Shown here in pieces: positions 182-224 of a stretch of 64,000 bases of DNA. This DNA comes from Escherichia coli (GTDB lineage: Bacteria; Pseudomonadota; Gammaproteobacteria; Enterobacterales; Enterobacteriaceae), in the NCBI RefSeq assembly GCF_044647545.1, contig NZ_CP172818.1; one strand, given 5' to 3'. Each line of letters begins with the position of its first letter. The stretch's first letter is position 1. The position numbers were made by a program, and so were the translations under genes. The notes under the pieces are model-generated. The model was not told where the DNA came from, searched no databases, and saw only the letters and a program-made list of their open reading frames with translations.

Positions 182-224
182 AAAAAAAAAAAAAAAAAAA
201 AAAAAAAAAAAAAAAAAAAAAAAA
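182..224. repeat. Uninterrupted 43-nt poly(A) homopolymer (poly(T) on minus strand)
   Basis: Read directly from sequence: t at 181, a x43 at 182-224, t at 225. Begins 25 nt after the metL stop. Confidence 0.95.

Follow-up and report, generated by a model that had tools for sequence, protein, structure and literature searches.

The metL–metF region

The window, as we call the whole 64-kb stretch of Escherichia coli DNA analysed here, opens within metL, the frame of which ends ...CTG GCG CAG TTG TTG TAA at positions 140-157, with the stop codon at 155-157. Direct reading of the sequence places an uninterrupted run of 43 A (hereafter A43) at positions 182-224, starting 25 nt past this stop, with 24 nt between the two. 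From metL to the end of metF, the window is composed of the following segments.

1-157, plus strand: genuine 3′ end of metL including its TAA stop (155-157), annotated as metL and 100% identical to E. coli FDAARGOS_497
158-181, no strand assigned: left flank of A43, with a K-12-type short-spacer layout (TAA-TTTCAG...AATGCCCGGT) carrying ST648-type bases
182-224, no strand assigned: A43, following the CCCGGT of the template-type spacer and replacing ~1.3 kb of true sequence (roughly 14442-15730 of FDAARGOS_497 locus L003)
225-286, no strand assigned: right flank of A43, in which the K-12/O157-type short spacer (TACTCATGTTTTCGGGTTTATGGTTTCTAATGAAATATATTG) is garbled, poor in C and interrupted by A-rich insertions
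287-928, plus strand: degraded 3′ two-thirds of a 5′-nucleotidase gene, recognized by colinear alignment and reduced from 1,014 bp to 642 bp
929-1154, no strand assigned: partly degraded non-coding DNA past the 5′-nucleotidase stop, in which T/G deletions and changes to A make up most of the 35 private differences
1155-2195, plus strand: clean metF leader and metF (ATG 1305, stop 2195), an intact 296-aa ORF with 0 differences from FDAARGOS_497

A43 is present in the data and lies far beyond chance. No other homopolymer in the 64-kb window exceeds 11 nt; an A20 probe finds matches inside 182-224 only, and none in 100 dinucleotide-preserving shuffles; and the four next-longest A runs (9-11 nt) all fall within a T-poor stretch at 360-938. 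Neither A12 nor T12 was found in nine fetched real E. coli loci (~190 kb), and the longest homopolymer across 88 kb of the closest genome, the near-identical FDAARGOS_497, is 8 nt, with no A/T run longer than 6 nt in the true 2.8-kb interval corresponding to this locus. According to the literature, long mononucleotide repeats occur below expectation in E. coli genes (PMC1378130), and a 5-Mb E. coli genome holds just ~280 A/T runs of at least 8 nt (PMC8538453), in agreement with the view of the preliminary description that runs of this length are unnatural in E. coli. The placement of the run after metL given there is borne out by the sequence and the reading frame alike, as is the lack of an adjacent GC hairpin: no terminator-like hairpin adjoins 182-224 on either strand. 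Thus, while A43 resembles the T-tract of an intrinsic terminator in that its minus strand reads as a run of T near the end of a gene, it differs from one in having no GC-rich upstream hairpin on either strand, and its 43 nt extend far beyond a terminator tail.

The window derives from an ST648-like E. coli. Positions 1-158 are 100% identical to FDAARGOS_497 (L003 13868-14025), and from 929 onwards the sequence is 99.7% identical across 19 kb to the ST648-like group, comprising FDAARGOS_497, IMT16316, Ecol_881, MS6198, ECONIH1 and others. A different Escherichia species, suggested by a first match of 92.8% identity, was rejected, since identity to ST648-like E. coli reaches 99.7-100% in the downstream DNA. 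The window equals FDAARGOS_497 wherever FDAARGOS_497 aligns to K-12, the rRNA operon excepted, and outside a few clusters there are no substitutions or indels between the two (0 SNPs in 60 kb).

Downstream of metL, FDAARGOS_497 (NZ_CP033850.1, 1,709,000-1,713,100) carries a 1.1-kb hypothetical gene in opposite orientation, a 1.55-kb gene for a bifunctional metallophosphatase/5′-nucleotidase, and then metF. The clone-mates carry both genes intact and no A-run longer than 6 nt at the metL locus. The distance from the metL stop to the 5′-nucleotidase stop is 2,780 bp in FDAARGOS_497 vs 771 bp in the window, and the entire post-metL segment lacking a K-12 counterpart measures 3,010 bp vs 997 bp. 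The 5′-nucleotidase gene was found in 1,841 of the 5,426 complete E. coli genomes, the remainder of which, for example K-12 and O157:H7, have a short metL-metF spacer of ~350 bp.

The two flanks of A43 combine these alternative arrangements. The 21-mer to the left of the run matches L003 14421-14441 at 21 of 21 positions (z = 12), a site that belongs to the adjacent hypothetical gene of the true strain, ~390 bp farther along, and it is at the same time colinear with the short spacer (z = 7). No E. coli genome of the 5,426 contains window 1-181 contiguously at 99% identity or more. To the right, positions 225-275 have their best alignment with the part of the short spacer that immediately follows CCCGGT, in the colinear position (local score 40; shuffle mean 18.2, maximum 31; z = 6.8), and the right-flank sequence yielded no match in the 5,426 genomes when searched in distant mode. 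The stretch at 179-281 is depleted in C.

These flanks bear on whether A43 could stem from engineering (a spacer or a cloning scar) or from an insert that was retro-transposed or polyadenylated. Pure long homopolymers are mostly man-made or derived from poly(A) tails. However, the flanks contain no vector, cassette, FRT/lox or primer-like sequence, and present a garbled natural spacer instead; in a retro-transposed insert, the poly(A) tail would follow the sense-strand gene fragment, whereas A43 lies 5′ of it, and the bordering CCCGGT and TACGCA form no target-site duplication. With corruption of the same kind at no fewer than six other sites, an engineered or retro-transposed origin is barely credible.

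Farther to the right, the copy of the 5′-nucleotidase gene is near-perfect at 289-345, after which nearly every T is deleted. Over 287-928, the retained fractions are 85% of A, 68% of G, 52% of C and 14% of T, with most substitutions being to A; beyond reference position 15891 (~900 reference bases), 7 of 193 T (~4%) are kept, as against ~83% of A. Only 7 of the 500 nt at 401-900 are T (the others being ~46% A, 34% G and 19% C of the total), and nowhere in 360-938 do T residues exceed 6 per 100 nt. Loss of T is dominant, yet 15-39% of the other bases are missing as well, so that the segment is not simply a 5′-nucleotidase gene minus its Ts, as a clean single-base filter would produce. No genome of the 5,426 covers window 183-927. 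Within the damaged block at 158-1154 (block 1), the number of matches per 50 reference nt runs 45, 43, 33, 28 ... 15 ... 33, 44, 49, being best at both edges. The nearly T-free stretch at ~380-928 is a much larger anomaly than A43 itself and was overlooked in the preliminary description; the lysine/arginine-rich ORFs at 372-946 are spurious products of the skewed composition.

Could the run nevertheless be genuine, with only its surroundings badly sequenced? It would then be a strain-specific homopolymer that arose by deletion or insertion downstream of metL and acts as a contingency or DNA-bending element, and the run itself is unambiguous in the data. Polymerase slippage past long homopolymers does degrade downstream reads, but slippage does not delete one base type, and similar damage is seen at sites having no homopolymer. 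In addition, the junction at the left flank is itself not a natural one, and a 43-nt run would be highly unstable (for the principle, see PMC1378130). The suggestion in the preliminary description that a real run would serve as a contingency tract or as a DNA-bending, nucleoid-protein-binding element finds no support in the 5,426 complete E. coli genomes, none of which has any tract at this locus, clone-mates identical elsewhere included.

Phase-variable contingency tracts are typically ~8-20 nt long and conserved in position, with length varying among related strains. A43 shares with them an intergenic location near a promoter-bearing spacer, and departs from them in that the related genomes lack any tract at its site. 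The metF ATG is ~1.1 kb away on its downstream side, and A43 lies within the degraded sequence and outside any ORF or promoter that might be switched; the promoter-like matches near it are limited to 246-274, in garbled sequence. We therefore consider a real strain-specific run to be exceedingly unlikely, and equally so its particular version in which the isolate gained a run of ~43 A after metL by deletion of most of the island and this homopolymer caused the collapse of downstream sequencing. Were this so, no E. coli chromosome would be known to hold a longer homopolymer, and A43 would be a hotspot of extreme slippage beside the metF control region.

Other damaged sites and their relation to K-12 homology

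Past position 929, all differences between the window and FDAARGOS_497 fall at 937-1154, 6465-6621, 17149, 22042, 26581-28958, 38946-38954, sites within the rRNA operon including 39152-39165, and 59913-59940. The features found at these places beyond block 1 and outside the rRNA operon are listed below, none with a strand assigned.

6465-6621: yijF-gldA intergenic patch, where the repeat element of the strain differs from that of K-12, with private errors at both element borders
17149 and 22042: 1-bp and 7-bp deletions relative to clone-mates, exactly at the ends of K-12 homology blocks, in the yijO-eptC and ppc-argE spacers
26581-28958: corrupted island of manD and an MFS-transporter gene, located between argH and oxyS/oxyR and shortened from 2,813 bp to 2,378 bp (block 2)
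59913-59940: patch after the rpoC terminator hairpin, with 17 private differences, G/T being lost or changed to A

Block 2 retained 85% of A, 71% of C, 54% of T and 47% of G, with G-poor stretches at 26604-26705 and 28768-28887, and found no match among the 5,426 complete E. coli genomes. It falls exactly between the points where K-12 homology ends (26489 of FDAARGOS_497 locus L004) and restarts (29303). At its left end, right past the argH stop, the sequence follows the K-12 spacer and not that of the strain; at its right end, bases of the strain's type, from within the MFS gene, are joined in the K-12 fashion (...GGCAAAAAAAAGCGG). Clean sequence is back on the oxyS terminator side at 28959-29100 (AAAAAAAAGCGGATCCTGGAGATCCGC), and the oxyS/oxyR region appears intact and identical to the reference.

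Among the smaller patches, 6465-6495 shows mostly G deletions and the loss of a C/T-rich run, accompanied by a CC deletion at 6620, and 59913-59940 coincides with the break at which K-12 has yjaZ and sroH, absent from the ST648-like strain. Neither patch could be accepted as a natural REP or terminator allele, the best full-length identities in the 5,426 genomes being 90.8% for 6465-6621 and 92.9% for 59913-59940.

The rRNA operon (16S-tRNA-Glu-23S, 38345-41870) differs from FDAARGOS_497 at 31 sites, of which 9 carry the K-12 allele, 16 are private and 6 are unlike both. In an allele test of this multi-copy locus, 9 sites agreed with K-12 only, 317 with the strain only, and 16 were private. 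These differences could reflect bleed-through of a template, mixing of the seven rRNA copies, or natural variation between copies.

We aligned FDAARGOS_497 to K-12 MG1655 and mapped the private errors of the window onto the resulting blocks. The colinear blocks on L004 span 1036-6344, 6524-17050, 17093-21947, 21952-26489 and 29303-34001, and the private errors in this half of the window, at L004 813-1035, 6346-6521, 17050, 21944-21950 and 26490-29302, all lie between blocks. Inside the L004 blocks there are no private errors at all, though K-12 differs there at ~720 sites, and the boundaries of error intervals agree with those of K-12 homology to ~3 bp. In block 1, for example, the differences stop at L004 1035 and K-12 homology starts at 1036, which is the point at which clean sequence restarts in the window (~1155). 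The second half of the window behaves alike, with errors at 6289-6303 and 27258-27292 of locus L006, and the rRNA cluster at 38946-38954 also falls in a gap of K-12 homology. One further break, at L006 17399-17421, where K-12 has extra DNA and the strain almost none, is clean, indicating that deletions relative to K-12 were reproduced correctly and insertions were not.

Outside the rRNA operon, then, every private error sits in DNA having no K-12 counterpart. Within the operon, private differences occur in K-12-alignable DNA and are left unexplained by this simple rule; mixing of reads from multiple copies could account for them. Four patch edges, namely both flanks of A43 and both ends of block 2, display K-12 structure filled with the bases of the strain. 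The boundary of DNA shared with K-12 also approximates that between core and accessory sequence, and a conservation-aware procedure making no use of K-12 would yield an equal pattern.

This distribution is difficult to reconcile with a single low-quality gap-closing read, or a chemistry that lost a dye channel or flow, in which no template was involved and poly(A) is junk from the base-caller. The near-absence of T over ~550 nt does resemble one lost channel or flow, and block 1 (~158-1154) is about as long as one long read. However, such a read would not account for remnants of a K-12-type spacer that the strain itself does not have, nor for the position of every patch, down to those of 1-7 bp, at a break in K-12 homology; moreover, block 1 is of good quality at either end, and different bases were dropped in different patches. 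We find this origin improbable overall. As the main cause, a single-channel or single-flow failure on Sanger, 454 or Ion Torrent instruments was rejected, because it explains neither the K-12-type remnants nor their coincidence with homology breaks.

Possible origin of the run

No known biological process removes a single kind of base across half a kilobase and leaves the order of the remaining ones intact; the data here are corrupted. Several features point the same way: A43 is missing from the metL locus of near-identical genomes, the DNA adjoining it is a degraded colinear copy with a non-biological, deletion-dominated error spectrum, and the recurrence of such damage elsewhere is tied to a technical variable, the lack of a K-12 counterpart. 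These comparisons make it very probable that A43 is non-biological, and most likely the run is the most extreme symptom of failed reconstruction on a K-12-like template and no element of a living chromosome. Of the two possibilities raised in the preliminary description, an artefact or an engineered spacer, the first is upheld, with A43 lying inside ~1 kb of degraded sequence (158-1154) into which ~3 kb of the true locus has collapsed, and with like damage elsewhere only where a K-12 counterpart is missing; the second finds no support, in the absence of any cassette, scar or vector and with flanks that represent garbled natural alleles.

As to how this may have come about, the pattern of errors leads us to favour, with moderate confidence, a template-guided consensus. 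The sequence data of the strain would have been laid onto a K-12-like template by reference-guided consensus calling, polishing or an equivalent step, in which substitutions and deletions relative to the template would be called correctly, and big strain-specific insertions would lose register and emerge as a shortened, deletion-rich, A-biased consensus, its quality dropping with distance from the anchoring edges. Between metL and metF, the short spacer of the template would have been partly overwritten by bases of the strain, the first ~1.7 kb of the island would have collapsed into the 21-mer and repeated A, as the default or favoured symbol, and the rest of the island would have become the nearly T-free ghost of the 5′-nucleotidase gene.

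Known artefacts of reference-guided consensus and polishing are similar in being accurate where sequences are colinear, in producing garbage only in insertions, in combining template structure with sample bases, and in rendering deletions cleanly. They differ in that the strong base-specific dropout of the window and its pure A43 are not features that we can attribute to a documented tool. A template-guided consensus leaves several details unaccounted for: the base lost was T in block 1, while block 2 lost both G and T, and 6465-6495 mostly G; the run has exactly 43 A; and 2.4 kb is kept in block 2 vs ~1 kb out of 3 kb in block 1.

In 2-bit encodings of DNA, A has the code 0, and some tools convert N to A. 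Filling with a default symbol is accordingly a plausible source for A43: it would place pure A where sequence is missing, and substitutions in the patches are mainly to A. It would account for the run, but not for the T-specific deletions.

A different non-biological origin is that the non-core segments were regenerated in silico with no reads behind them, by a generative model, by imputation or consensus over many genomes, or by deliberate corruption, with poly(A) as degenerate output. Degenerate generated sequence typically shows runaway homopolymers and A-rich low complexity. The borders of the patches follow the split between K-12-shared and strain-specific DNA to ~3 bp, and one patch mixes the majority short-spacer allele with the island allele, both in favour of regeneration. 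The junk sequences, moreover, are in no public collection searched: they are absent from the 5,426 complete E. coli genomes, and a junk-specific 31-mer had 0 matches in the contigs of species-representative genomes and 0 in metagenome contigs. On the other hand, the junk is colinear with the strain's own island over hundreds of bases, with most A, G and C in order, implying access to the true sequence; its errors increase smoothly away from the anchors, which is not expected of simple noise injection; and free generation would not produce 60 kb devoid of SNPs relative to a single clone. We regard regeneration in silico as unlikely, and as a weaker candidate than reconstruction on a template.

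Use of the record and the two islands

A43 is not a real feature and represents no new biological element, and it is useful solely as a warning about data quality. At least eight stretches of the window are unreliable (158-1154, 6465-6621, 17149, 22042, 26581-28958, 38946-38954, 39152-39165 and 59913-59940), and any “novel” ORFs, repeats, low-complexity tracts or composition anomalies within them, such as the ORFs at 372-946 or the G-poor and T-poor tracts, should be discarded. Errors that occur only in DNA missing from a common reference genome, in a sequence that is perfect elsewhere, may serve to diagnose similar records.

The comparison with K-12 also touches on the history of the two islands, which are intact in ST648-like strains. 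The short metL-metF spacer of K-12 holds a relic of the hypothetical gene (TTCAG..AATGCCCG), and its short argH-oxyS spacer holds a relic of the MFS gene (TGGCTT..ATCGCCGGG), as judged from loci L002/L008 vs L003/L004. These relics are real biology, and their presence in the K-12 spacers suggests that both islands were there ancestrally and that the K-12 lineage lost them by deletion.
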